36,465 nt of DNA from NCBI GenBank assembly GCA_023645945.1, contig JALAIB010000067.1, positions 1-36,465 on the forward strand, in the 5' to 3' direction. Positions 1 to 36,465 of the stretch are shown piece by piece. The DNA is from Diploschistes diacapsis. Lineage: Eukaryota. The translations under genes and the position numbers were made by a program. Each line of letters opens with the position of its first letter. Positions within the stretch are counted from its first letter, which is position 1. Below the pieces are notes generated by a model. The model saw nothing but the letters and a program-made list of their open reading frames with translations. It was not told the origin of the DNA and made no database searches.

Positions 1-262
1 TCTGATTCGAATGGTCATATTTGTTTTAAAGGAGCGTGGGTGTAAAAAAACTTATAATAAACATCACTTGAAAGACCCGCAAAAAGGGCGTAAAGGCTAA
101 TGGTAAAATATATATTTATTTCGGTCACAATAACTGCTCTGATAATATGCCGGTGAGTCAACTGGTAACCCGCTTCCGGATTCCAAATTACTTTCCATCT
201 ACAACGTTTCACTTCACCTTTACTGATTCCTTACCCACCTAATCTTCTTAATCTACATCACA

Positions 263-1474
263 ATGACTGAAGTGGTAAGATGCTCACAAACGTCTAGTTT
301 TATATGCTCATTCTACAGGAAATTCCAGAGCGTCCCAAACGCAAGTCGGTCGCATTTTCAGAAGATACCAAGGTTGTTGACTCCAACGGGGATGTCACGA
401 CCGAGATGAATGGGACTGCAGATAGATCTACGGCAGAGAGCCATTCAAGTATGCCAACTCTAGGTACCAGGTTTTTGTTACTCATCTAACGGAATCCAGC
501 ACCGCAAGATAATGCGGATAAGGATGTGGACGACGTCTTGGATTCATTCAAGGCCCCGGCCAAGAAAAGGAAATCGAAGAAGCCAAAGGACACCGAGGGC
601 GAAGCTACGGAGGAAGCAGTTACTGCAGAAGGAAATTTTGATCCCTCGGCCGCCAAGAAGAAGAAAAAGAAGAAGGCTTCAACTACCAACGAGGTCGATG
701 ACTTTGAGGCCAAGCTAGCAGAAGCCGGGGTGGGCGATGAGGCACATACAGCAACAACGGCTGAGGAGCAAGAAGGTGATATGGAGAAGGGTACTGGCAT
801 TTGGTCCCACGGAGCCTCTCAACCCATTAGCTATCCCCTCCTCCTTACGCGTTTCTTCACTATCCTGCAAAACAACCACCCTGCCCTGTTATCAAGCACG
901 AAGAGCTACAAGATTCCACCGCCAATGTGTCTTCGTGAAGGGAATAAGAAGACCATTTTCGCAAACATCGCGGATATTTGCAAGAGAATGAAGCGCAGTG
1001 ATGAGCACGTGACGCAGTTTCTATTCGGTAAGGCCCTCACAGATATTGAAGCTCATGTTTCGACTAATCACTCTTTGAGCTGAGCTGGGAACGAATGGCA
1101 GTGTAGATGGGAGCAGAAGGCTGGTCATCAAAGGGCGCTTTCTTCAAAAACAAATCGAGAATGTCTTGCGGCGCTACATTGGTCAGTCATACTTTCATGT
1201 TTCTCCGTTTGCGCTAGCTTACCACAACCAGTCGAGTACGTTACGTGTAAGACGTGCAGAAGCCCCGACACCGAGCTCTCGAAGGGAGAGAATCGCCTTA
1301 GCTTTGTGAGTTGCAACAGCTGCCAAAGGTACGTAACCTCGCCTTCCTCGACCTCTCAACGTCCTAGGTAGTAACTCCGGGTTATTGCTAACCTTCCAAA
1401 GTCGAAGGAGTGTCAGCGCAATCAAGAGCGGCTACAAAGCTCAAATTGGCAAACGAAAGCGCCAACAAGCCTGA
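263..1474 (+). CDS. SUI3: Translation initiation factor eIF2 beta subunit; exons 263-274, 319-448, 500-1027, 1080-1181, 1232-1328, 1402-1474
   Basis: Lys-rich boxes ([16 protein letters not shown]); after splicing, conserved [63 protein letters not shown]4 zinc finger EYVTCKTC...CNSC; all introns keep frame. Confidence 0.96.
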
Positions 1475-6616: not shown

Positions 6617-9600
6617 TTATGAGATTGGCGCGGATCTTTTGCGTCTGCTGAATATCCGGGCAAAGCCGCCCTCCTTTTCCGCGGGGATGGGAGGCAACGG
6701 TGCTTGGGCAGGTGGCGGCGATGTGTTTCGTAAGAAGTCAGCCAGCTCTCTCACGCTGTTTGTATTGTCCCTGCTATCTCTTGCTAACTTTCTAGCCGCT
6801 CGAACATTGTTGGTGCGACCTGCTGCGACACCTTTGGCGTTAGCACCAAGACTAGCGCCGCGGGGCCTGATCTGGGGATTATTGCTGTACACACTGGTGA
6901 TGCCGTTGCTTGGTTGAGGGCGAAGGTGAGGATCGTTCCCTGAATGAGCCGTGGTGTGGTACCCAGGGCTGGTGATTCCGCTTCGTGGAGCAGTGTTCGA
7001 AGAGGAAACGGCTCTCTTAATCGCGGCGGATTTCTGCCCACTCTTGGTAAAGCGAGATCGCACACTCGGACCGCTTGGTTTCCTTTGGAGCATTTTCGGT
7101 GGACCTCCTACATCTAGTGGCGGCGGCGTCGTATTTGCTCCCGGAGGTGGCTCACTCCTCAAGAAGTCAAGCAGGCTCTCCTCGTTGTCTTCCTTTCTAC
7201 CGCCCCTCGGCGTCGTGACCTCGTCCTCATTCTCTTCGTCACTGAAATCAATTGGATAGGGATCTAGATTCCGTCGTCGCGTCTTCACCGGAGCCATTGG
7301 CTCATCCGTCGGAGGCATCCGGGACTTCTCCCATGCAGATACTTTGCCAACATTTCTTGAAGAGTCAAGAAGCCCGACGCGAGAGTTGACAGACGATTGG
7401 ATCGACTTCCCGGTGATGAAGCTGTCTTGGGTGCTGACAATGGAATGAGTATCTTGCGGTCTTACCGTCGCGTCATCCGCGTCCGGAACGCGATGTGCGC
7501 CAGAAGGTCCGTCGCGGAAGAACTCTGCGAGCGAAGAGGTTTCGTTACCCTGCCTCGTAGGTTCACGGGGCTCGAATTTTCGCTTGGACTTCGAGCCGTT
7601 GCTGACGGTCGATAACCGAGGAGATGTTGAGAGAGGCACGGCGACTGGCGGAGGCTTTTTTACGGTTTTTGGGTTCTGTTGAGAGGGTTGCTGCACGACG
7701 CGCGCTGCTCTGGGATCAACAGGATCGGGCCCCGTTGAGCGGAAGAAATCCTTCAGGTCCGACGTGTTCGTTCTTTCCATACGAGCATCTTTCGCGACAA
7801 GTTGCAGTCCACGCTTCACAGTTGGGCCCGCGTGGATGACAAATTTTGCCGTGTCTTCAGCAGCTGAAGCGGTCACAGGATTCGACGTGAGGCCATTCAT
7901 TGCGGCTGGCAAGGTGCCGGCGGGTTTGGTCAGTCTCGGAGAGCGGTCTGCAACTGATGTGCCTCTAGAACCAACTGGCGCAGCAACAGACGCTGGGGAT
8001 TTTTGCTGTACCGGGCTCCCTCTTTCCTGCGCCTGGTTAGATAAGAATGGAGAAAATTTGGAGGGCATAGCATACCTCAATTTCCCTCATGTTCTGCGGA
8101 GTTAGAGTGTATTGGAGCGTCTCTCCACTGCTGAAAAGCTGCTCAAAATTCTTGTAGTGATCAGAATTCCTGGTGCTTGAACGACTGTGCCGGTCATCGA
8201 CAGCGCTCCTGTTCAAATCATTCGAAGTCGTTGAAGGAACAGAATCGCGAAACTCATCCTTAGCTGCGGATTCCACGCGGCCCCTGTTCTTGATGGGTAA
8301 CGCTGACTTCTCCGATAGCGCATCGGCGGATCCGGTTTCTGAGGTGCGAGCAGAGGTGGCGCTAAGCTCTCTCGGGGCGGCTGCAGTCCCTGATATGCGC
8401 GGCACCGGAGCTCTGTCAAGCCCTGCTGAGGCTGCAGAAGGCTGGCGCCGTTGCTCCAAGTCTGATGTCGGTGCATGTGGCCTGGCCGCGGAGCTGGGTG
8501 CGATAGGTGGAAGTTCCTTGCGTGAAAGTTGTGTTGGGGATGTCAGTAGTGTCGTGGACTTCTCCGGTACGTCCGATGCTTGTCCATTCTCAATCAACGG
8601 TAATTGACTTGCAGCAGCTGCAGCAGCAGCAGCAGCAGTCTCTGCGGGAACGTTGCGATGTTTCCTGTTTGGGCCACCATCTGGAGGGACTGGTCTGCGT
8701 GAAAGAGAAGAGCTATCCGGAAAGTGATTCCCAGCGGTGAAGTCGTCCGGTATGACAAAAGCTTCTCTATTCTCTTCCTTCGCATAGTCATTCTCGGTTG
8801 GGCCTGCCTTTGCGCGATGGCGCCCTTGCATCGGACGACCCGAGTAGCCAGGGATGGCGGTTTTCTGAGATCTCTGCCTCAAGCCTTCCGTAGGAAAGGA
8901 CGTCTGTGCCTTGAATTCCTGCGTGATTAGCTCCCCCGATGTTATCTCTTTGTGGGTCGTTTCTGCTTCAGGCACAACCTCTTCTGGAGCTACACCGTCT
9001 TGCTGGAGATGGTCATGGGCAAAGTCTTCCGGAGGCACAGACCCAATGCACATCTCACCCCCGTCGTCGCTCAGTTCGATAGGAGATACCTCACCCGATC
9101 GAATCGAAGCTTGCCCCACCGGAGAGACGCGTCCCGACCCTGGCGGAGCATGGCCAATAAGTGGGCTGACGGGTGGCTGTGAGGAAGCCTCAGGATTGTG
9201 GGAGGGATGAAGTCCTTTGGCTGGCTCATGGACAAGTGCTTGCTCCTTGAGCAGAGCGGAGTAGCGTTCACTATCTTTGATCTGATAATCCGCTCGATCG
9301 AACTGGAGAGCTCCTTCGGCCGGATCGTTTTCGGATTGGTAATCAATATACGAACCCCGGGGATGGGGTTCGTATTCATGTGCGATGTGGGAGGTTGCGT
9401 TAAAGTCGGAACCGAGAAAGGGACTTGTGGGAACCGAGCTGGGCTTTGGAATAGCATAGTCGCCGAGTACTGCAACACTATTTCCTGCCATGTCTATCAA
9501 AGATTTGTTATGGTCCCTTAGCTCTTGCGTTACTGGGAGCTCTTCCTCGGGCGTGACGAATGGGGGTTCCGGTTCGGGATACTCGGGGACAGCGAAGAAA

Positions 9601-10898
9601 GGGGTGTCTGGAGCCGGCAAAGATCGGGCTCGAGGACGCTTCGTCCTCTCTATCTGCTCCTCTCGAGGTGTGCTCTCTGCGTCGGACGCGACGATTTCGA
9701 GATGGTTCGACGGCTTTGCAGAGCGATTGATGTCCGTTCGGATCAGCATGCTAAGTGGTCGGCCACGCTCGTCCACGGCGCTTCTTTGTCGCTGCGCGAA
9801 ATTGGCAGAATATCCGGGGACCTCGATCTCCGCGACATCGTGATCTGTGAATGGGAGCGGGATCGTTGAAGGATCGTTGGTGTTGAGAACTTCAGCAACC
9901 GACGGTACACGATCCGCATCGTCTGGGAGATCTCTCTCGGATGTAGCAATGCTGCTCCGAGAGCCGACGGAGAAACCGCGAAAGCCTCTCGATCCCATGC
10001 CCGGAATTTTGGACAGCGAGCCTCGAGGAGAGCGGACAGACGCTCTCCAAGATCTCCAAAGACGGCCAAGGGTGGAGTTGAGGGCCACCCTTTCCATGTC
10101 CACCTCTTCCACGATCACCTTTTGCAGACCAGTTTCTTCGATCCGTGCGCGAGTCTCGTGCCTCTTGTACGCGGCTTGTGCAGCAATCATCAGCGCGTGC
10201 TCACCGACGAACTCGAGGACCGAAGTCAAGAATATGGCGACAGCGGGTGACACCATGCCGCCTTCCCTCTGCGAACTCCTGTTACCACGGTTCAAATGCC
10301 CCTGCTCCAAGTACATTTCCTCGTCCTCCTCTTCCATATCGCCCAGCCGAGTGTACAGCATGCACCGCAAACGCGTACGCTTCCAGACCAAATCCAAGTC
10401 CCAATCGCCGGACGGCTCCTCGCCCCCATGAAAGGTGTTGAGCTCCTCCATGTCTCCACCGAGGTATTCTTGGAGTTCCTCGTCTGCACCGCTGATTGCT
10501 TCCTTGGCGAGTCGCGGACGAAGCACATCTGTGACTGCGGGCCGAAGCGACGCCAGAGAGGTTGAATGGGCACACGAAAGGAAATTATAGAGGAGCCGAT
10601 CGAGGAAGGCATTGATGAGGCTCAACGAGCCGGCCGTCACCGAAGCGCCTTCGTGCTCTTGGTCTTGTGGGAAGGAGATGTGGTATTCGTTGATGATTTC
10701 GCTCGTTACTACATTCGCCGCGGCGGCAGCAGCAATGTAGGCCGCGTCTGGAGAGACGGCGGGCATGGAAAGCAGCGATATGGACGGCGACATGGACGCG
10801 CGCTCGGGATGCTGGCCAGCTCTCCCGGTGGTGTCCAGACGCAGTGCATCGGGGCGAGGGGAGCGGGTCATGCTTGATTCAAGCGCAGAAGACGGCAT
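6617..10898 (-). CDS. Large (~1400 aa) uncharacterised protein: N-terminal H2B/H2A-like histone-fold doublet, long low-complexity region, four LxDF(L/F)R repeats; intron 8033-8075
   Basis: Two long ORFs (953 and 487 aa) joined in frame by a 43-nt GTATGC...CTAACCAG intron; motif similarity to histones H2B and H2A in aa ~86-280. Confidence 0.88.
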
Positions 10899-12638: not shown

Positions 12639-15056
12639 TCACATCACCTCGCAGCTGGTCTTCTGCCGACATTGCTCGAGGTAACCGGGTACATCTTCCG
12701 GTTCCTCGCTGCCTACCGCAGCCCCGATCTTCCTTTTAAGACCCTTGACCGTAATCTTCTGCTCTCCTTCTCCGTGCCACCACCTCAACCTCTGGAGGAG
12801 ACCCAGGCCGTGATCCGCTTCGTCAACGGTAATGCTCCACTTGCCTGAAGTCACTTCCACCCTGGCACTTCCTTTTGGGAAGTGAAACTCTGGAAGAAAA
12901 ATCTCGGTGGGCGTCTCCTCCGACGGCGAGAAGTCGGTCTTGAGCACAAAGCTGAAGATGCCGTTTCGCAGATCAAAGCCATACGATTTGATAGTCCCCA
13001 CCGTGTATATTGGCGAAGGACGTACGTAAGCTTCGGCTGCCCGATATCCCGAAACCGCGACATCACCTCCCGTAGCGACGGATGTTGACCGGGAAATACT
13101 GGGAGTAGCTATTGTGTCTTTAATGTTGTTGGGTGAGATAGTGGTCTGCGAGCCCGTGGTCAATCGTGACTGCGAAAATGAAGGTCCTGAAGCATCATCA
13201 GACGTGCTAACGTCAGAAGAGGTACCCGGCTGCGATCTATGAGGGCTTATAGGTAAAGGCTTGTCGTCCAGCGAAAAGATGGAGAGGTCCTCGCCGTTCC
13301 AGTTATCCCCCCATTCGTGGTTATTCTAGCATAAATACTTAGTCATTAGACCCTAAGGTTTGAAGATGCACTCACAGTCGCAACGTAGGTCCAAAACGTG
13401 TACCCGGCTATTCCACTGCCTTCTAAAGCAAAGTGGTTGGCGTCCATGGCCAGCGATTGGCTAGTGTAATCGCCTGTTTTGTATGCGTATTTATCGTCCA
13501 TATCGTAAGGTATACCGATTTCAGAGAATACACACGGGTGATTTCCCATGTACTCAAGGCCTTCTTGCCTTATGGCTGTCAGTTGTTCCTTGAAGCAGTT
13601 TCGAATGGCCGTCTCGCCAATCTTGATCGCGAACGCAGGCGTCAGGTACTTTCCGCGCAAAATACCGAATACATCAACATTCCAGTAGCGGTTCCTATAT
13701 TCTGTCAGCACGGCCAAAATAGTGGAAGACTTCTGACCATTTCTTCGTGAGCAATGTTATGCCGTCATAGAAATGAGGTGTATATACCATGTCGGGCGCG
13801 TCATCCGGGGTTCCCTTCAAGGATGGAGGTATTTCAAGTACAGGGGGCTGTAGAAACATGATTGCCTGTTGATGTACGCTTTTGATAGAGTCTCGGTGTT
13901 TCCGATAATAGTCCATAAAGTAGCTGTTGGCAAAATACTCGTAGTCAATGGATTTGCCGCTCTTTGGATCTCTGGAAAAGTAATCTTTTTTCAAGAGTTG
14001 GTCATTCTTTGGGTCCCAGACCCCATGTTGGGCCCATATGCACTCCCCGAGTCTCCAACCCGGATCTCTTTTCCACCCGTATTTGGTATCGTCGTGATCG
14101 GAGGATAACCAGGCCGTTGCTCCTTTTGGATCTACCAAACGAGTTCCGGTTTTATACGGGCCGAGTCCACCAATGTCCCATGTGTCGACTTCGCAAGGTC
14201 TGCCGGATCCCAATAGCATCGCCTGCCACGCCGTTGGGGAAGTTCCTTTCTGCAATTTTTGCTCTGGTGGTATGACAGACACATCGACGTGGCCGACTAG
14301 CCCTTTGTTTGGTTCGTTTATGCTCTCCCACCCTATGACAACCTCATTTTCTATGTCTCCAGCCTCTTGTATGCGTTGCGCAAGGTGCTTGCATGCGCCC
14401 GTGAAATGATCTTGGAGATATTCTTGAATGTTCTTCCCATCGATAATTGCCTTGGGTGCGAAATCTTTGCCACCAAAGAAAAGGGTGAACATTACTTGAC
14501 AGACCATTCGCCAATAGTTAGTAGACCAGATCATCTTTGGGTAATTCTCGGGGCCCTCGGGCCAGGCATTGTGCACAAGAGCTGCCTCAGTAGGAAGGAA
14601 ATTCTGAGGGTCCAACCCAGCAGCGTAAAGCGTCCACATTGGCGCACCAGAGCCTCCTGAGAAGCGTGACCAGACGTCTTGATGCGGGTCCATGAAGATG
14701 AAGAAGCCATAGTCTTTCGCACATCTGAGAACCTCTATTGTATGCTTAATCCAATCTTCGTCGTATCTTCCTGGCCCTGCATGCTCAATCGCCTCCCAAG
14801 TAAAGATGTATCGTATAGTATTGTACCCATATCTCTTCAACCTGGCGAAATGCTTGTGTGCTTCGCCGACGCTGAACGGCCGGCCAACAAAAGAAACATC
14901 GTCGCCTTCGGAAAAATGCTCCTTTACGTGGGATGGAATGTCGGGCGAAGCTGGGAATTTTGCGTCACCAGCACAATTGATACCACGAAGAGTGACCTCT
15001 CTGTTGTGTCGATCTTTGAAGACTCGGCCTTCTACTCGCAACCGTAGAAAAGACAT
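12639..15056 (-). CDS. GH5 endoglycoceramidase-related glucosidase (steryl-beta-glucosidase/glucocerebrosidase, Egh1/EGCrP-like); introns 13695-13737, 13326-13375
   Basis: REVTLRGIN, FTWEAIEHAGPG, MDPHQDVWSRFSGGSGAP, acid/base WESINEP, nucleophile VFSEIG, WGDNWNGEDLSIFS; three exons join in frame; ends SCEVM*. Confidence 0.93.
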
Positions 15057-15518: not shown

Positions 15519-18500
15519 ATGACGACGGCATCGAAAGGGGCCCTCAAGGCCGCAAAAGCTGCACTTGACTCTCATGACTACCCCGAAGCGGAGAGACAAG
15601 CCCGCCAAGTTCTTGAGCAAGATTCAAGACATTATAATGCGTCAGTCCAGCTGATCAATCATTTACGCCATTAACAGACTATCAGGACTGTCTTCCTTGG
15701 CCTCGCACTCGAGAAGCAGGGAAGAGATGAGGAGGCGGAACGGTTCTATGGCTACGCTAAAGACGCAAAGCCAAAGAATCCTTTAGCTTTGCAAGGTCTG
15801 GTCACTCTGTATGAGAAGCATGCCGCCAACAAAATCGATCAGTATGGCGTCGCTGCTCAAAAACTCGCCGAACTCCATATGGAGGCGTAAGTGCTACGTG
15901 CTTGTGCCGGTCGGAAGGTTCCATTGCTGAGGATGAATAGAGATGACAAGTATCGATGCCAGACTGTCGTGGACAAGTATGTCGACTTTGCAAAGCAACA
16001 TGGTTCACAAGCACAGTACAAGAATGCTTTGCAGCTAATGCTGCCCGACAGCAGTCTCTATGATTATCTTGATGGCCGCATACCGAATCCGGCCAACACA
16101 TACGCAAAGATCATCGAGATTACTGAAGGAGAGGAAAAGCAGCGTATCAACAAGCTTGTTGGGGAGCGAAGAACAAGAATTGGCGCTAGAGTTGGTCAAG
16201 TCACGAACGAAGTCAAAAGGGAAGTCTTCTTATCCAGCAGCTTGGAGGGATTGTATCATGCAGCCATCAACTGGACCCATGATGACGATACGCGTCGCAT
16301 GTACGAGGAACGATTGCTCCAGCGTGCTTATGATACTTTAGCCGTTTTGCCTCCAAATGATAAGACAGAGAAAAGATCCCAGGTTCAGCAGCTTTCGAGG
16401 GACATGGTCGTCCTGAAGCATCCATTTGCCTTAGCATGGAAGGTTGTGTTGGAGTGGCGAGACGTCGAGGACATTGGCGACCTTGAAGTTCACCTTTTAC
16501 GAGAGTATATAGAGCTCTTTCCAGATGATGGCCTTACCATGATCCTGCAGGGCTTTCTCGAGAGCGATGCATCACCTTTCCCAAAACCGAAAGTGGAAGT
16601 CAAAAAAGCAGATGAGCACGACAATGATATCGATGAGCCGGTGACTGCTCAGGAGCGCTTAATCACGATGACTGAAGGCCTTGAGCAAAGTTCGAGGGCT
16701 TTACTATCCCAGCGCATTATGGGAGCATATTTATTGCACTTGCAGGAGTACGCTAGCGCCGTCGAATGTTCTCAAAAAGCCCTCGATCTTCTTCAGATAG
16801 AAAGTAACATTTCCGGTCTGGGCTTTCAGGACACCTTTGATGCTATCAACATAGTCCTGGGGACGGCTTTAGTCCACCACCAGACGCCCCGAAATCATCC
16901 AAGAGCGCATCACATTTTCGAGAGCATTCTCAAGCGCAAACCAGCTAGTTCCTCGGCTTTGATTGGAACAGGATTGATTTTGGAAGAAGAGGGGGACTAT
17001 AGGGGCGCTCATGACTTTCTTACTCAAGCTTTGCGCCAGTCGCCCAACGTGAAGATCCGAAGTGAAGCCGCCTGGTGTCAGGCGCTAGCTGGGGATCTCG
17101 AGAATGGTCTTCAACAGCAGAAGAACTGTTTACAAGCACTCCAAGCTTCGGAATCTACGAGCAAAGACTTAACATCTGAAGTCCACTACCGTGTCGGAAA
17201 GTGCATATGGGATCTTGACACTTCCAAGACAGCGCGCAAAGATAGAAATGGCGCTTATGCTCATTTTCTCGCGTCTCTACAAGCGAATCTTAACTTTGCA
17301 CCGGCGTATACCTCTCTTGGAGTGTACTACGCCGATTATGCGAAGGACAAAGCTCGAGCCCGCAAGTGTTTCCAGAAAGCTTTCGAATTGTCACCCTCGG
17401 AGGTCGAAGCGGCGGAACGTCTGGCACGAGCCTTTGCAGAGCAAGGGGACTGGGAACTTGTTCAAGTGGTTGCTCAACGTGTTATTGGATCTGGAAAAGT
17501 GAGACCCCCACCCGGCTCTAGAAGACGAGGTCTTAGTTGGCCTTTTGCAGCGCTAGGAGTTTGCCATTTAAACAACCAAGAGTACCCGAATGGAATTGTC
17601 TCATTTCAAGCTGCCCTTAGAATATCTCCCAAAGACTTCCACTCTTGGATAGGTCTCGGGGAGAGCTATCATAATTCTGGGAGGTATGTGGCTGCAATCA
17701 AAGCATTTGAGGAGGCACAGAAGCTTCAGGAAGAGACAAACAGGACCGAAGACTCGTGGTTCTCAAAGTACATGTTAGCCAATGTGAAGCGTGAGCTAGG
17801 AAATTTTGAAGAGGCAATTGAAGGCTATGGGGAAGTTTTGGCCTGCAGAGCGAACGAATATGGCATCTCAATCGCTCTCCTTCACGGTCATGTAGAGCAT
17901 GCTTGGGCATGTATACAGCTTGGCCTCTTTGGCCGTGCGAAAGATAATTGTATCAAAGCTATCATGGTGGCTAAAGGCCTGGTTCTGTCAGGTTCATCAA
18001 CTTTCAATCTTTGGAAGACCCTCGGAGACTCATGCGCTATGTTTTCCTGGATGAAGCGTTACAGTACTGAGCTCCCAGTGCAGGAATTAAAGATCATATT
18101 GGAGGAGAAGGCGGAGCAAGGAATGTATCAGAGTGTTGCCGACATTGATGGCATTGGGCACGAAGCAATATCTTCACTTACTTCGTCATCTCGTTCAACT
18201 GCTTACACACATACCGCCATACTCGCGTACAAGCGAGGAATTTTCTGCTGTTCTAATGACGTGCATGCGCAGGCCGTTGCCTGGTATAACCTGGGTTGGG
18301 CCGAGTATCGGGCCAGTATTTCTCTTGCGAGCAGTATCAAGAAAGCCAACCCCCAGCTCAGGGCTGCAGTTCGATGTTTCAAACGCGCGATTGAGCTCGA
18401 AGCAGGCAATCCAGACTTTTGGAACTCACTTGGCATTGTTACGACTCAATTGAACCCAAAAGTCGCACAACATGCATTCGTCAGAAGCCTCCATCTAAAT

Positions 18501-19820
18501 GACAGATCGGCAGCAACATGGACCAATCTAGGCACCTTCTATCTCCTACAGAATGATGTTCGACTCGCCAACGAAGCATTCACACGAGGACAATCAACAG
18601 ATCCTGAGTACGCTCACGCCTGGCTTGGACAAGGCATCCTTGCTCTTACGCTGGGAGAAATTGAAGAAGCGCAAAGTTTGTTCACACAAGCTTTTGAGAT
18701 CTCTGATGCCTCATCACTTGTTTCCAAGAGGCTGTACTCTTTGTCGTCCTTTGACCGTGTTCTCTCAACAGATCGGTCATATCAAGTTGCTGATCTCCTT
18801 CAACCTCTCTTTTCTCTGCACCAGCTTAGAAGCCAGACGAGCGGCGATGCTGTGTTTCAGCATCTTTCTGCGCTTGTTGGTGAGAGAATCGGCGATCAAG
18901 ATGAGCCTATCAGAACCTTGACCGAAGTTTGCGCAAGTCTAGAAGCTGAGTACGAGGAATTTGAATCGCCGCTGTGTCTAGTTCGCTTTGCGCAGGCCAA
19001 GGCTGATCTTGCACGAGTCCAGCTTACTGCCTGTGATTTCGAAACAGCGATTGTAAATGCGGAGACTGCATTAGACCTTTCTGCTGATGAGAATTCCGGC
19101 AGGCCCGACCCGACTGCCCACATCAGATACAGGCTTTCAGCGCACCTCACATGCGGTTTAGCGCATAGTGCGAACGGCAACATGGATGGAGCAATAATGA
19201 TGTTTCGTGCTGCGCTTGAGGAATCTCACGAAAGTCCCGACATCGTCTGCCTTCTTGCGCAGGTGCTGTGGGCAAAGGGTGGTGATGAAGAACAGACCGT
19301 CGTTCGTGAACAGCTTTTTGATTGCGTTCAGAGACATCCTGAACATGCCAGCGCCATCTGTCTTCTTGCCGTCATTGCAATTCTGGACAATGATAGTGAA
19401 ACTTTGGAAGCTGTCGCAGCAGACCTGCACAACCTACGGACTAGAGAGGACCTCGAGGAGCAGCAGAAGCTCAAGATAGGCCACTTATTAACCGCTATTA
19501 CAAGGTTCTCACAATCAGCTACCAAAGAGACAGCGGATGACACTTCTAGAGATGCCGAACTTTCAGAGGCTACATCTTCAATTATGCTATCGCCCTGGGC
19601 AACCCATGGCTGGAGTCAAATGGCTGACTTAACCAGTGCGGAAGGTTTTGTGCCAGCCGAGATAGCTCTTCTAACGGCCAAAGGTACCGTTCCATCAAGA
19701 GGCAATCTAGATGCTGAATCCCTTGCAAGAGCCTATGCTGGAATTGACACGGTTGCAAATGGACAGAAAGCGATCATGATTGCTCCATGGCTGTCTGTTG
19801 GCTGGGACAGTCTGACATAA
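15519..19820 (+). CDS. SKI3: SKI complex TPR subunit Ski3 (TTC37); introns 15641-15685, 15887-15940
   Basis: N-terminus MTTASKGALKAAKAAL; many TPRs; LNFAPAYTSLGVYYADY...RARKCFQKAFEL, FQAALRISPKDFHSWIGLGESY, PKVAQHAFVRSL, AIMIAPW...GW C-terminus. Confidence 0.95.
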
Positions 19821-20251: not shown

Positions 20252-21154
20252 TCACGACTCGACTTCCATTATAGTTCTGCATCTTTCCAAAAGCTCCAGA
20301 GCACCACCTACTCCTCTAGCTTGCCACTTCTGCAGCAGTAGCTTTACCTCTTGCCAATCCTCTTTGGCGGCCTCTTTCTTCCCCTCTTCATCCATACGTC
20401 TGAATCTTCCTGGTGCCCCTAAAACCCATTCGACAGTATTCATCTCTTGCGTCCTCCTTTGGACATCCGCATCTTCTCCGTCTCTTTCCCGATGTTCCAA
20501 TCGCTTTGCTCTGCTCGAGGGCAGATTTTCTCCGTTCTCCTCAATAGCGAGAATCGCTACTTTTTGCTTCATAGCAGCCGCCAGCGCCTCGGCTGTTCCC
20601 GCAATGTGCGATATTGCTGGAGCAAGTGTTGATGTATGAGGTGCTAAGGGATCCATGTTTGCTCTCATTCGCCGAATCGTATCAGTCGCCGTGATCAGCT
20701 TCGAATAATTATCGTATACGAGTGCCTTGCGGTCTCCGTCCAGAGATTTGATTTCCCCCACTAGCTCCCACTCTGACTTCAAAACTCCTTCCAACCCTTC
20801 ACGCTCCAACACGCCTTTAACGTATGCCTGGGCATCGAAGCCAGGTGTGTCGAGCTCGCTACTTGAGATTTGTGACCCATCGGGCGGGATTCCTTGACTA
20901 TGGCTATCTTCCTTAGCGCCATCTGGATGCTGCGTTGGAGGGTTCTTCAGGCCATAGAAATCTCTTAGAGCAGCACGGTTGCGGCGGGCTTGAGGTTGAG
21001 GGGCGGTGACAGGAGGGTTGCTAGGTTGTAGGGAAGGTGAGCTGACTGTTGAGGAGCGGGTGGTGGTGTCTAAAGAGGTGCGGCGAGAGGAAGAGGCAGA
21101 AGCCAGAGGAATCTGGAAAAGAGATGCTGAAGGTGGGTTGGGAATGGTCGGCAT
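20252..21154 (-). CDS. VPS51: GARP complex subunit Vps51 (short fungal form), single exon
   Basis: RRNRAALRDFYGL, SELDTPGFDAQAYV, EIKSLDGDRKALVYDNYSKLITATDTIRRMR; first in-frame ATG at 21154. Confidence 0.9.
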   Translation of the reverse strand: MPTIPNPPSASLFQIPLASASSSRRTSLDTTTRSSTVSSPSLQPSNPPVTAPQPQARRNRAALRDFYGLKNPPTQHPDGAKEDSHSQGIPPDGSQISSSELDTPGFDAQAYVKGVLEREGLEGVLKSEWELVGEIKSLDGDRKALVYDNYSKLITATDTIRRMRANMDPLAPHTSTLAPAISHIAGTAEALAAAMKQKVAILAIEENGENLPSSRAKRLEHRERDGEDADVQRRTQEMNTVEWVLGAPGRFRRMDEEGKKEAAKEDWQEVKLLLQKWQARGVGGALELLERCRTIMEVES

Positions 21155-21332
21155 TAGTTCTGGCGCAGCGATTGAAGAAACATGAAGGTCAACGAATTGA
21201 GAGCGGTAGTTAGCCACAGCGGCCGAACTTTCTTCCACAAACCTTTGCTAAGGTAACCCTAAATTCCGCTTCCATTCATCCTGAGCTGGAGCTCTCTTCC
21301 CGGATCTGGTGATATCGCCTCTGCCGCGCTCA

Positions 21333-35184: not shown

Positions 35185-36465
35185 ATGATATTGCGCAGCG
35201 TCTTGCGGCGCTCCTTCGCGCCATTCTTGCCTCTTGCTAAACAACATGTAAGGCTCCAAAGTAACGGTGAGCTCTCGCGTCCTCCCCTCTGAAGGTCCCA
35301 CAGCAGCCTGACGTTTCCCGTAGCTGCTACAACGGACAGCGATGTCACCGACAGCATGCTCTCGCGCGCTCGTGCAATAGCCCACAAACACGTTGAGCTA
35401 CAGAAGCAGCTCTCCGCCAATTACGATAGCTCCATAGCCAAGAAAATAGGAGAGCTGAGCACGACAACCGGCATCCTCCACGAGTGGGAAAAAGCGCGCA
35501 ACGTCAGTCTTCCAACCCTATACAAGCCATTACCAACGCTGATCAAGCCCCAGTCCCTCGCCGAGCTCCACCAACTCCTAACCGACAAAACCACGGACTC
35601 GGAACTCCGCTCCCTGGCGGCCGAAGAAGTCGAGACGTCCACCAGCACGCTCCGCTCCCTCTCGCAAAAGCTCCGCGCCTCCCTCGTCCCACAACACCCC
35701 TTCGCTAAGCTCCCCTGCCTCATCGAGCTGCATCCCGGTGCGGGCGGCGACGAAGCGGCGCTTTTCGCCGGCGACCTGCTGCGCATGTACCAAGCCTTCT
35801 GCAAACGACGTCGGCTGCCCGTCAGCATCCTGAGTCTCGAAAGCGCGTCGCCCGGCCACTCGGACCAGATCCAGGAGGCGATCCTCGAAGTCTCGGCGGA
35901 GGGCGCGTACGAGCTCCTGCGTGGCGAGGCCGGGGTGCACCGCGTGCAGCGCGTGCCGGCGACGGAGAGACAGGGCCGCACGCACACGAGCGCGGCGTCG
36001 GTGCTGGTGCTGCCCAGTTTCCCCGAAAACGCCGCGGACGCGCTGCAGGGCGAGGAGAGCTGGAACGACCCGGAGAGCGACTACTACGTGCAGCCGTGCG
36101 AGGTGCGCACGGACGTGATGCGCGCGCGCGGCGCGGGCGGGCAGCACGTCAACACGACGGACTCGGCCGTGCGGCTGACGCACGTGCCGACGGGCACGGT
36201 GGTCGCGATCCAGGAGAGCCGCAGCCAGCACAAGAACCGGCAGAAGGCGTGGCAGATCTTGCGGTCCCGGCTGGCGCAGGCGCGGCGGGAGGCGAGGGAG
36301 GAGGAGCTGGCGAGGCTGAGGCTGAGCGTCGTCGGCGTGGCGAGGATGGGGAGGGGGGACAAAATCCGGACGTACAATTGGGCGCAGCAGCGGGTTACGG
36401 ATCATAGGAGCGGGTTGACGCTGAGGACGCTGGACGAGATCGTGGCCGGGGGGGAGGGTTTGGAT
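35185..36465 (+). CDS. MRF1: Mitochondrial class I peptide chain release factor (RF1-type), 3' end beyond the window; introns 35267-35323, 35503-35553
   Basis: Arg-rich presequence MILRSVLRRSFAPF; IELHPGAGGDEAALF, GEAGVHRVQRVPATE.QGRTHTS (PxT), RARGAGGQHVNTTDSAVRLTH (GGQ at 36136-36144), RSQHKNR, KIRTYN..Q.RVTDHR. Confidence 0.95.

Follow-up and report, generated by a model that had tools for sequence, protein, structure and literature searches.

The question raised by this locus is why a fungal gene should encode, in a single polypeptide, what looks like histone H2B followed by histone H2A at the head of a very long protein. The gene lies on the minus strand of a contig from Diploschistes diacapsis (JALAIB010000067.1, assembly GCA_023645945.1), whose 36,465 nucleotides, analyzed in full, are referred to here as the window. 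A preliminary description, made from the sequence alone, had proposed a fused H2B-H2A histone-fold doublet on a disordered scaffold with a signalling or protein-binding role. The two peptides on which it drew, at aa 86-146 and aa 215-280, were found where it had placed them (10059..10643, minus strand), inside the minus-strand open reading frame (ORF) 8037..10898 (953 aa), which corresponds to the exon-1 reading of the gene; the domain itself proved wider, at aa ~44-292, and takes in an H2B-like alpha1 upstream of the first peptide. The predicted structures and sequence profiles indicate that this head is very probably a genuine double histone fold, H2B-like and then H2A-like. The best explanation overall, which we regard as reasonably probable, is that the double-fold head does not wrap DNA and serves in protein docking on a disordered scaffold.

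The structure of the head was predicted with AlphaFold2 from the full-length family alignment (40 sequences), and templates were not used. The model of aa 30-300, in which model numbering plus 29 gives protein numbering, reached a mean predicted local distance difference test score (pLDDT) of 86.3 and a predicted template modelling score (pTM) of 0.85. Its helices fit the order helix-loop-long helix-loop-helix twice, with beta bridges before model positions 60 and 236, and a separate model of a 1198-aa full-length Diaporthe homologue, 51% identical in the domain, showed the same helix pattern. When the model was compared with the PDB using Foldseek, ranks 1-46 all had a probability of 1.00 and consisted of H2A-H2B or H2A.Z-H2B chains, SOS (1q9c, 3ksy) and Melbournevirus 7n8n, while at rank 47 the probability fell to 0.09; the target template modelling (TM) scores of ranks 1-46 were mostly 0.57-0.66 and were lower in long fusion or multidomain chains. 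A Foldseek search of a viral structure library (BFVD) was led by giant-virus H2B/H2A doublets at E 5.8e-4 and below, with Pithovirus, Clandestinovirus and Marseillevirus entries at the top.

Alignment with VIA-align gave the same picture. The best match was SOS chain 1q9c_F (Z 13.6, with 157 residues superposed at a root mean square deviation of 2.8 A; model 12-260 aligned to residues 6-182 of the chain), in the company of the H2B-H2A chimeras (Z 12.0-13.5, including 6k09_D at 13.5 and 7dlx_A at 12.9 with 22% identity) and Melbournevirus 7n8n_B (Z 12.3). Lower in the list stood Spt3 (Z 7.7), the M. kandleri histone (6.7-6.9), the bacterial chain 1wwi (6.2) and the first unrelated chain (5.6). 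Superposition of the whole domain on the chimeras and SOS aligned 142-166 residues at Z 12-13.6; isolated H2B chains aligned onto model 20-120 at Z 4.4-4.8 in both VIA-align passes. In a wide pass made without Foldseek, only 4 of 48,161 representative PDB chains reached Z>=8, namely an H2A-H2B fusion, SOS (Z 12.6) and two Melbournevirus doublets. The structural matches are colinear across both folds, in the order H2B-like and then H2A-like, and by predicted structure together with profile similarity the two folds are predicted to pack together as an H2A-H2B-type pseudodimer. The doublet proposed in the preliminary description, together with its likeness to SOS and to the giant-virus doublets, is thus borne out by these models, and the outcome it had named as refuting, a profile or structure pointing to an unrelated fold, did not occur, since all top matches are of the H2B-H2A type.

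Sequence searches pointed in the same direction. A phmmer search with aa 1-300 against all PDB sequences had as its top match 7dlx_A, a single-chain H2B-H2A chimera (E 0.024), with the halves aligned in order, aa 79-145 on the H2B part and aa 203-276 on the H2A part. A profile of the domain, built from 18 sequences (the window domain and 17 short family fragments), matched 7dlx_A at E 6.6e-5, 4m6b_A at 1.3e-4, 2jss_A at 1.5e-4 and the H2A.Z chain 8qz0_L at 4.1e-4, and every one of the best 60 of its 195 matches was an H2A or H2B-H2A chain. The significant signal in the profile match lay in alpha2 of H2A/H2A.Z. A profile from the full-length alignment matched histones only at E 0.05-0.2, with one spurious tail match, because the long disordered tails dilute it, and the domain profile was used instead.

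Several points weigh against this assignment. The fold match depends on a predicted rather than a solved structure, and helical models can reach Z about 13-14 through common arrangement alone. The H2B half is in register with 7dlx and 4m6b, yet it adds only ~2-4 bits, and Pfam histone models matched 0 of 40 family members (E<=10). The register after alpha2 of the H2A-like fold also differs between the phmmer alignment, which pairs aa 264-267 with the last part of H2A alpha3 and the first residues of alphaC, and the AlphaFold2 model, in which aa 265-273 form alpha3 itself; therefore, claims about the H2A acidic patch cannot be made at the level of residues. Finally, which face of the head would be acidic is deduced from the position of the residues in the sequence alone. 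Taken at their strongest, the marginal single-sequence match, the empty Pfam searches in all 40 members and the Z values open to mostly helical models would favor a chance resemblance of helices, or a predictor imposing a familiar fold. We consider that explanation hardly credible. The prediction was run without templates and two independent models agree; the profile, at E 6.6e-5 to 4.1e-4, found nothing but H2A-containing chains among the best 60 of its matches; and, despite the caveat on helical Z values, the hit list here is limited to the H2B-H2A-type fold, colinear over both halves.

The anatomy of the head follows from the model (Table 1). Between the two folds lies a connector with two extra helices, of which the second bears an invariant basic R-L-R-C-M stretch; in alignment numbering the connector invariants are R147, L148 and M151, joined by R149 in the 40-sequence full-length alignment. 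The helix at aa 190-199 is probably the H2A-like alpha1, judging from the helix order and a nearby anchor in the phmmer alignment. It overlaps the conserved acidic run GDMEEEDEE, in which G157 and E160 are invariant and D158, E161, D163 and E164 are conserved at >=90% (alignment numbering). The preliminary description had taken this run for an acidic linker; the run is present, but it is no plain linker, as in the model it leads into the first H2A-like helix. The H2A-like L1 is long, variable and of lower model confidence, whereas the alphaC carries an invariant R-L-W-R-x-W. Nothing structured follows alphaC in the model, and no docking segment is present.

The head belongs to a complete protein of 1410 aa, compared with 953 aa for the exon-1 ORF. 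Full-length annotated homologues (1317-1494 aa) have the same N-terminal domain together with the C-terminal motifs encoded by exon 2, and the splice between exons 1 and 2 is supported because these motifs stay in frame in the homologues. Exon 1 ends with ...MREIE, and many database entries of ~870-1000 aa, among them most metagenome-derived family members, stop just past this point. Since they end exactly at the exon 1 boundary, these entries represent exon 1 alone, as called by gene finders that ignore introns, rather than short isoforms. The public sequencing runs found to contain the window are DNA only, with the labels lichen and rock metagenome, and no RNA run was listed among them.

Beyond the head, the protein appears to be disordered. 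In the model of the full-length homologue, 855 of 1198 residues fell below a pLDDT of 50; the head is the sole folded domain and is followed by ~1100 disordered residues. No Pfam family was found in the 953-aa exon-1 product (E<=10) or in the exon-2 ORF 6617-8080 (E<=0.001), nor any Pfam domain in eight full-length homologues (E<=1), where GEF, ankyrin and BTB domains were all not found. This agrees with the earlier proposal of a disordered scaffold that lacks a GEF domain. The scaffold does carry short conserved blocks (Table 1), among them four copies in the tail of one motif, hydrophobic-x-D/E-F-hydrophobic-R/K-x-x-x-P. Outside the head, besides a small rise near the equivalent of aa 346-361, the homologue model has short helices exactly at the four motif sites. 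Shuffled tails contained 0 copies in 88 of 90 cases, and the copy numbers in 90 homologues are listed in Table 1. The RPRARSLP motif is of a basic-Ser-Leu-Pro type and may be a kinase/14-3-3 type site. A run of nine alanines was also seen in the disordered middle; homologues do not conserve it.

Histones are basic proteins, and the charge of the head is the reverse (Table 1). The preliminary description had used the acidity of the supposed linker as an argument against DNA wrapping, and that argument has gained in strength, as the entire domain is acidic here and in the 40 members. DNA wrapping is unlikely because the domain is acidic in all members examined, its first H2A-like helix is rich in Asp/Glu and its loops are long and variable, at sites where a histone pair would contact DNA, and it lacks a docking segment; the head is thus, in all likelihood, unlike a DNA-wrapping histone. 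Within the same protein the C-terminal third is strongly basic.

The mechanism that we put forward for such a protein is tentative, and in its full head-tail form rather less likely than not. The acidic head would act as a protein-docking module on the long disordered scaffold, and the four amphipathic helix motifs, with the other short blocks in the basic C-terminal third, would provide multivalent recruitment of partners. Basic segments, either those of partners or the protein's own basic tail, may be what the head binds, and contact between head and tail could gate the motifs, as the SOS histone domain gates SOS. A complex prediction for the head (aa 41-300) with tail motif copy 1 (aa 1012-1049), run without alignments or controls, scored 0.02 and 0.01, the mark being 0.34, and speaks neither for nor against binding. 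More speculative, and in our estimate improbable, is the notion of a charge-reversed 'anti-histone', in which fused H2B and H2A would keep their handshake, bind basic or arginine-rich segments in place of DNA and act, across the Pezizomycotina, as the regulatory head of a multivalent scaffold with four helical docking motifs and a basic tail.

The sequence evidence also bears on the possibility of a chromatin-linked mimic, that is, a nuclear H2A-H2B look-alike that would compete for, or offer a surface to, readers of H2A-H2B or of the nucleosome face, or bind basic histone tails, with the tail of the protein supplying import and chromatin contacts. In structural alignments the head is 16-22% identical to the H2B-H2A chimeras and 11-13% identical to 1q9c, so that it is nearer in sequence to real H2A and H2B than to SOS. 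Consistent with this, the sequence searches listed histone chains: SOS chains at E<=10 were absent from the complete phmmer and full-length-profile lists and from the best 60 of the 195 domain-profile matches. The Glu of the H2A alpha2 'LEY' is invariant in the family, as 'LEF'. The K/R-rich stretch before DPY, present in 83 of 90 homologues, presumably resembles a nuclear import signal, and the basic tail (+22) could bind nucleic acid. Set against these points, a charge of -11 to -28 removes the basic surfaces that meet DNA and most chaperones, and in the model no structured docking segment follows alphaC. In our own reading of the alignments, the column opposite the arginine-anchor Glu holds His, Gln or other residues in the family, and an invariant Glu stands one residue earlier. 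The pocket itself is formed by E61, D90 and E92 of H2A, according to the passage of PMC10606924 that describes it. A retained arginine-anchor pocket had been a candidate and was dropped, with the invariant Glu lying one position ahead of the E61 column and the model contradicting the alignment past alpha2. Overall we regard a chromatin-linked mimic as unlikely, and return to the acidic, non-wrapping docking head as the preferred reading.

The lower structural matches raise one more alternative, in which the pseudodimer would be an assembly module that pairs with histone-fold proteins or with itself to make up a larger histone-like particle, as Spt3 and TAF proteins do in SAGA and TFIID. Histone folds are dimerization and oligomerization modules, other double folds (Spt3 and the M. 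kandleri histone, at the Z values given above) do appear lower in the lists, and double-histone-fold proteins occur inside SAGA according to the part of a 2026 review that deals with them (PMC13088155). However, the like charge of the heads disfavors self-association, and according to the same part of the review homodimerization through the motif is not known for any tandem histone fold (PMC13088155). We judge this explanation quite improbable, less so than a false fold and more so than the chromatin-linked mimic.

A survey of homologues across fungi, suggested in the preliminary description, revealed a large family. A search with the domain found 1269 proteins at E<=1e-3, among proteins of 524-1668 aa; the 120 listed of these were 51-100% identical, with no Pfam domain on record for any, and the closest named among them were lichen-forming ascomycetes. 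HMMER over 1.84 billion cluster representatives gave 565 at E<=1e-3 (50%-identity clusters), 426 of them at <=1e-30 and 88 between 1e-10 and 1e-3. The layout was constant, a histone-like head and then ~1100 disordered residues. Only five longer forms were found, four without an extra domain and none sharing one, and only 21 shorter forms, each with >=45% identity, most on short contigs and several marked partial, which we read as truncated gene models. The named members include Stictis, Xylographa, Trapelia, Lecanora, Candelaria, Vezdaea, Diaporthe, Podospora, Fusarium, Ilyonectria, Colletotrichum, Cordyceps, Chlorociboria, Marssonina, Zymoseptoria, Cryomyces, Phaeomoniella, Cirrosporium and others. 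All of these are Pezizomycotina, of several classes, although relatives from other groups may lie among the weakest of the 565 matches. ESM Atlas matches were unnamed Ascomycota clusters with scores of 0.81-0.83.

Entries of the family are named 'hypothetical' or 'uncharacterized', save for Podospora and one Fusarium label. The ~1400-aa Podospora orthologues are called 'Flo11' in UniRef and hypothetical at NCBI; the former label looks like an automatic misnomer because no Pfam flocculin domain is present on eight other full-length members. The Fusarium entry, from F. oxysporum f. sp. cubense (2262 aa), is named 'putative 30S ribosomal protein S17-like' and alone in the family has recorded Pfam domains (CHAT PF12770 and TPR PF13374). 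A domain fusion had been considered as a clue to function and was rejected, as this entry is probably a merged gene model and not a real fusion.

Table 1. Positions of the gene, its predicted domains and motifs, regional charges, and other genes of the window.
Feature	Residues (aa)	Positions	Strand	Basis or remark
Whole gene		6617..10898	minus	ORF, splice and homologues; 1410 aa, stop codon included
Exon 1		10898..8076	minus	
Intron		8075..8027	minus	49 nt, GTATGC...CTAAC...CAG, canonical fungal type
Exon 2		8026..6617	minus	Frame continues from exon 1; includes stop codon
Predicted double histone fold domain	44-292	10023..10769	minus	Conserved block, AlphaFold2 model, fold matches, profile match
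Predicted H2B-like fold	57-145	10464..10730	minus	AlphaFold2 helices; alpha2, alpha3 and alphaC in register with the H2B part of 7dlx/4m6b
H2B-like helices (predicted)	alpha1 57-72, alpha2 89-110, alpha3 115-126, alphaC 128-145			AlphaFold2 model
Connector	146-185	10344..10463	minus	Two extra helices, aa 151-157 and aa 168-182 (AlphaFold2)
Predicted H2A-like fold	186-292	10023..10343	minus	AlphaFold2 model; alpha2 match to H2A/H2A.Z
H2A-like elements (predicted)	alpha1 190-199, alpha2 218-254, beta bridge 262-263, alpha3 265-273, alphaC 278-289			AlphaFold2 model
Conserved acidic run GDMEEEDEE	186-194	10317..10343	minus	Sequence and family alignments
IPLP...DV-x-EIEVP motif	346-361	9816..9863	minus	Conserved; small pLDDT rise in homologue, block mean 62
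RPRARSLP (basic-Ser-Leu-Pro; consensus RxRSxSLP)	421-428	9615..9638	minus	Regular-expression version in 56/90 full-length homologues
Nine-alanine run	754-763	~8610-8640	minus	In disordered middle
NFEQL...QYTLTPQNMREIE block	917-941	8076..8150	minus	Ends at exon 1 boundary; Y[TS]LTP in 74/90 homologues
Tail motif copy 1, DLKDFFRSTGP	1031-1041	7727..7759	minus	Homologue helix, block pLDDT 73
Tail motif copy 2, SLAEFFRDGP	1106-1115	7505..7534	minus	Homologue helix, block pLDDT 57
Basic-DPY motif TRRRNLDPYPIDFS	1190-1203	7241..7282	minus	[RK][RK]x[RK]DPY in 83/90 homologues
Tail motif copy 3, ESLLDFLRSEPPP	1224-1236	7142..7180	minus	Homologue helix, block pLDDT 63
Tail motif copy 4, VRELADFLRNTSPPP	1366-1380	6710..6754	minus	Homologue helix, block pLDDT 61
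Basic-hydrophobic C-terminal tail GGFARIFSRRKRSAPIS	1394-1410	6620..6670	minus	Strict regular expression in 32/90 homologues
Tail motif copies per homologue				Regular expression, n=90; copies: homologues, 1: 2; 2: 10; 3: 16; 4: 53; 5: 8; 6: 1
Net charge, head	44-292			-15; pI 4.9
Net charge, head domain of 40 family members				-28 to -11, median -17
Net charge, H2A-like alpha1/L1 insert				-6
Net charge, middle disordered region				-24
Net charge, C-terminal region	917-1410			+22; pI 10.3
Glycoside hydrolase family 5 (GH5) gene		12639-15056	minus	Intron-split; ORF 13695-15056 matches Pfam Cellulase/GH5, E 1.2e-8; ORF 12639-13163 matches Glyco_hydro_5_C, E 2.2e-24
TPR-repeat ORF		15891-19820	plus	Uninterrupted, 1309 aa, many TPR repeats; N-terminal TPR_22 match E 4.9e-28
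ORF with Vps51/Exo84/COG1 N-terminal domain		20252-21238	minus	E 2.5e-21
PCRF + RF-1 peptide chain release factor		35356-36465	plus	Runs past window end; probably mitochondrial factor

The other genes recognized in the window lie on the higher-numbered side of the histone-like gene and are given in the last rows of Table 1.

We found no description of a fungal fused H2B-H2A family in the literature. Among eukaryotic double histone folds, the 2026 review covers SOS, ABTB2-type proteins, Spt3 and 'high-identity' animal doublets, and its Table 1 lists Spt3 alone for fungi (PMC13088155); a term search of a later paper from the same group did not find fungi mentioned (PMC13520046). Entries of the family may by now bear a histone-fold superfamily tag in structure databases. 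Few cellular non-chromatin proteins carry a double histone fold, and the fungal family enlarges their number by hundreds, with members in Podospora, a genetic model, and in Zymoseptoria, Fusarium and Colletotrichum, which are plant pathogens. No Pfam model detects the domain. It would provide a natural example of a histone pair reused with its charge reversed, and the folded ~250-aa head offers a tractable entry to a 1400-aa disordered protein preserved throughout the largest filamentous fungal group.

The comparison with known systems places this family beside, but not within, those already described. With canonical H2A-H2B and H2A.Z-H2B dimers and their chimeras (7DLX, 4M6B, 6K09, 6W4L) the head shares the fold and, in the case of the chimeras, the order, at the identities given above, and its H2B-like alpha2, alpha3 and alphaC are in register with the chimeras by sequence. 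It differs from the canonical pair in its charge of -15, its acidic first H2A-like helix, the two extra connector helices, the long variable loops, the lack of a post-alphaC docking segment and the ~1100-residue disordered tail. The giant-virus doublets (Melbournevirus 7N8N and the mini variant 9CVT, Z 12.3 and 9.8-9.9) have the same H2B-H2A order in nature; however, judging from their entry titles they are short DNA-wrapping virion or nucleosome proteins, whereas the fungal protein is cellular, acidic and long-tailed.

Two further families offer parallels in layout. Like the fungal head, the SOS histone domain (1Q9C/3KSY) has an H2B-like and then an H2A-like fold in one chain at the N-terminus of a large protein of a non-chromatin type. 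In SOS, DH, PH, REM and Cdc25 domains follow, whereas none was found after the fungal head, which is in addition strongly acidic and shares only the 11-13% identity noted above with SOS. According to the section of the review on SOS, its histone domain is no DNA wrapper and is known from animals and Capsaspora only (PMC13088155). The ABTB2/Cca3-type proteins, with Cca3S, are described there as having an H2B-like and H2A-like double fold, 25-30% identical to histones, in a multidomain non-histone protein with ankyrin and BTB domains or as a stand-alone fold, in animals only, and in Table 1 as lacking a solved structure (PMC13088155). By that description the fungal protein is set apart, as ankyrin and BTB domains were not found in it. 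The family thus resembles the SOS and ABTB2-type double folds, yet it belongs to neither. Its sequence is closer to true H2A and H2B than to SOS, which would suggest a separate recruitment of the histone pair. If the 'anti-histone' proposal should hold, the fungal family, with SOS and ABTB2, would show that eukaryotes have more than once turned acidic pseudodimers of the H2B-H2A type into control modules at the N-terminus of non-chromatin proteins.

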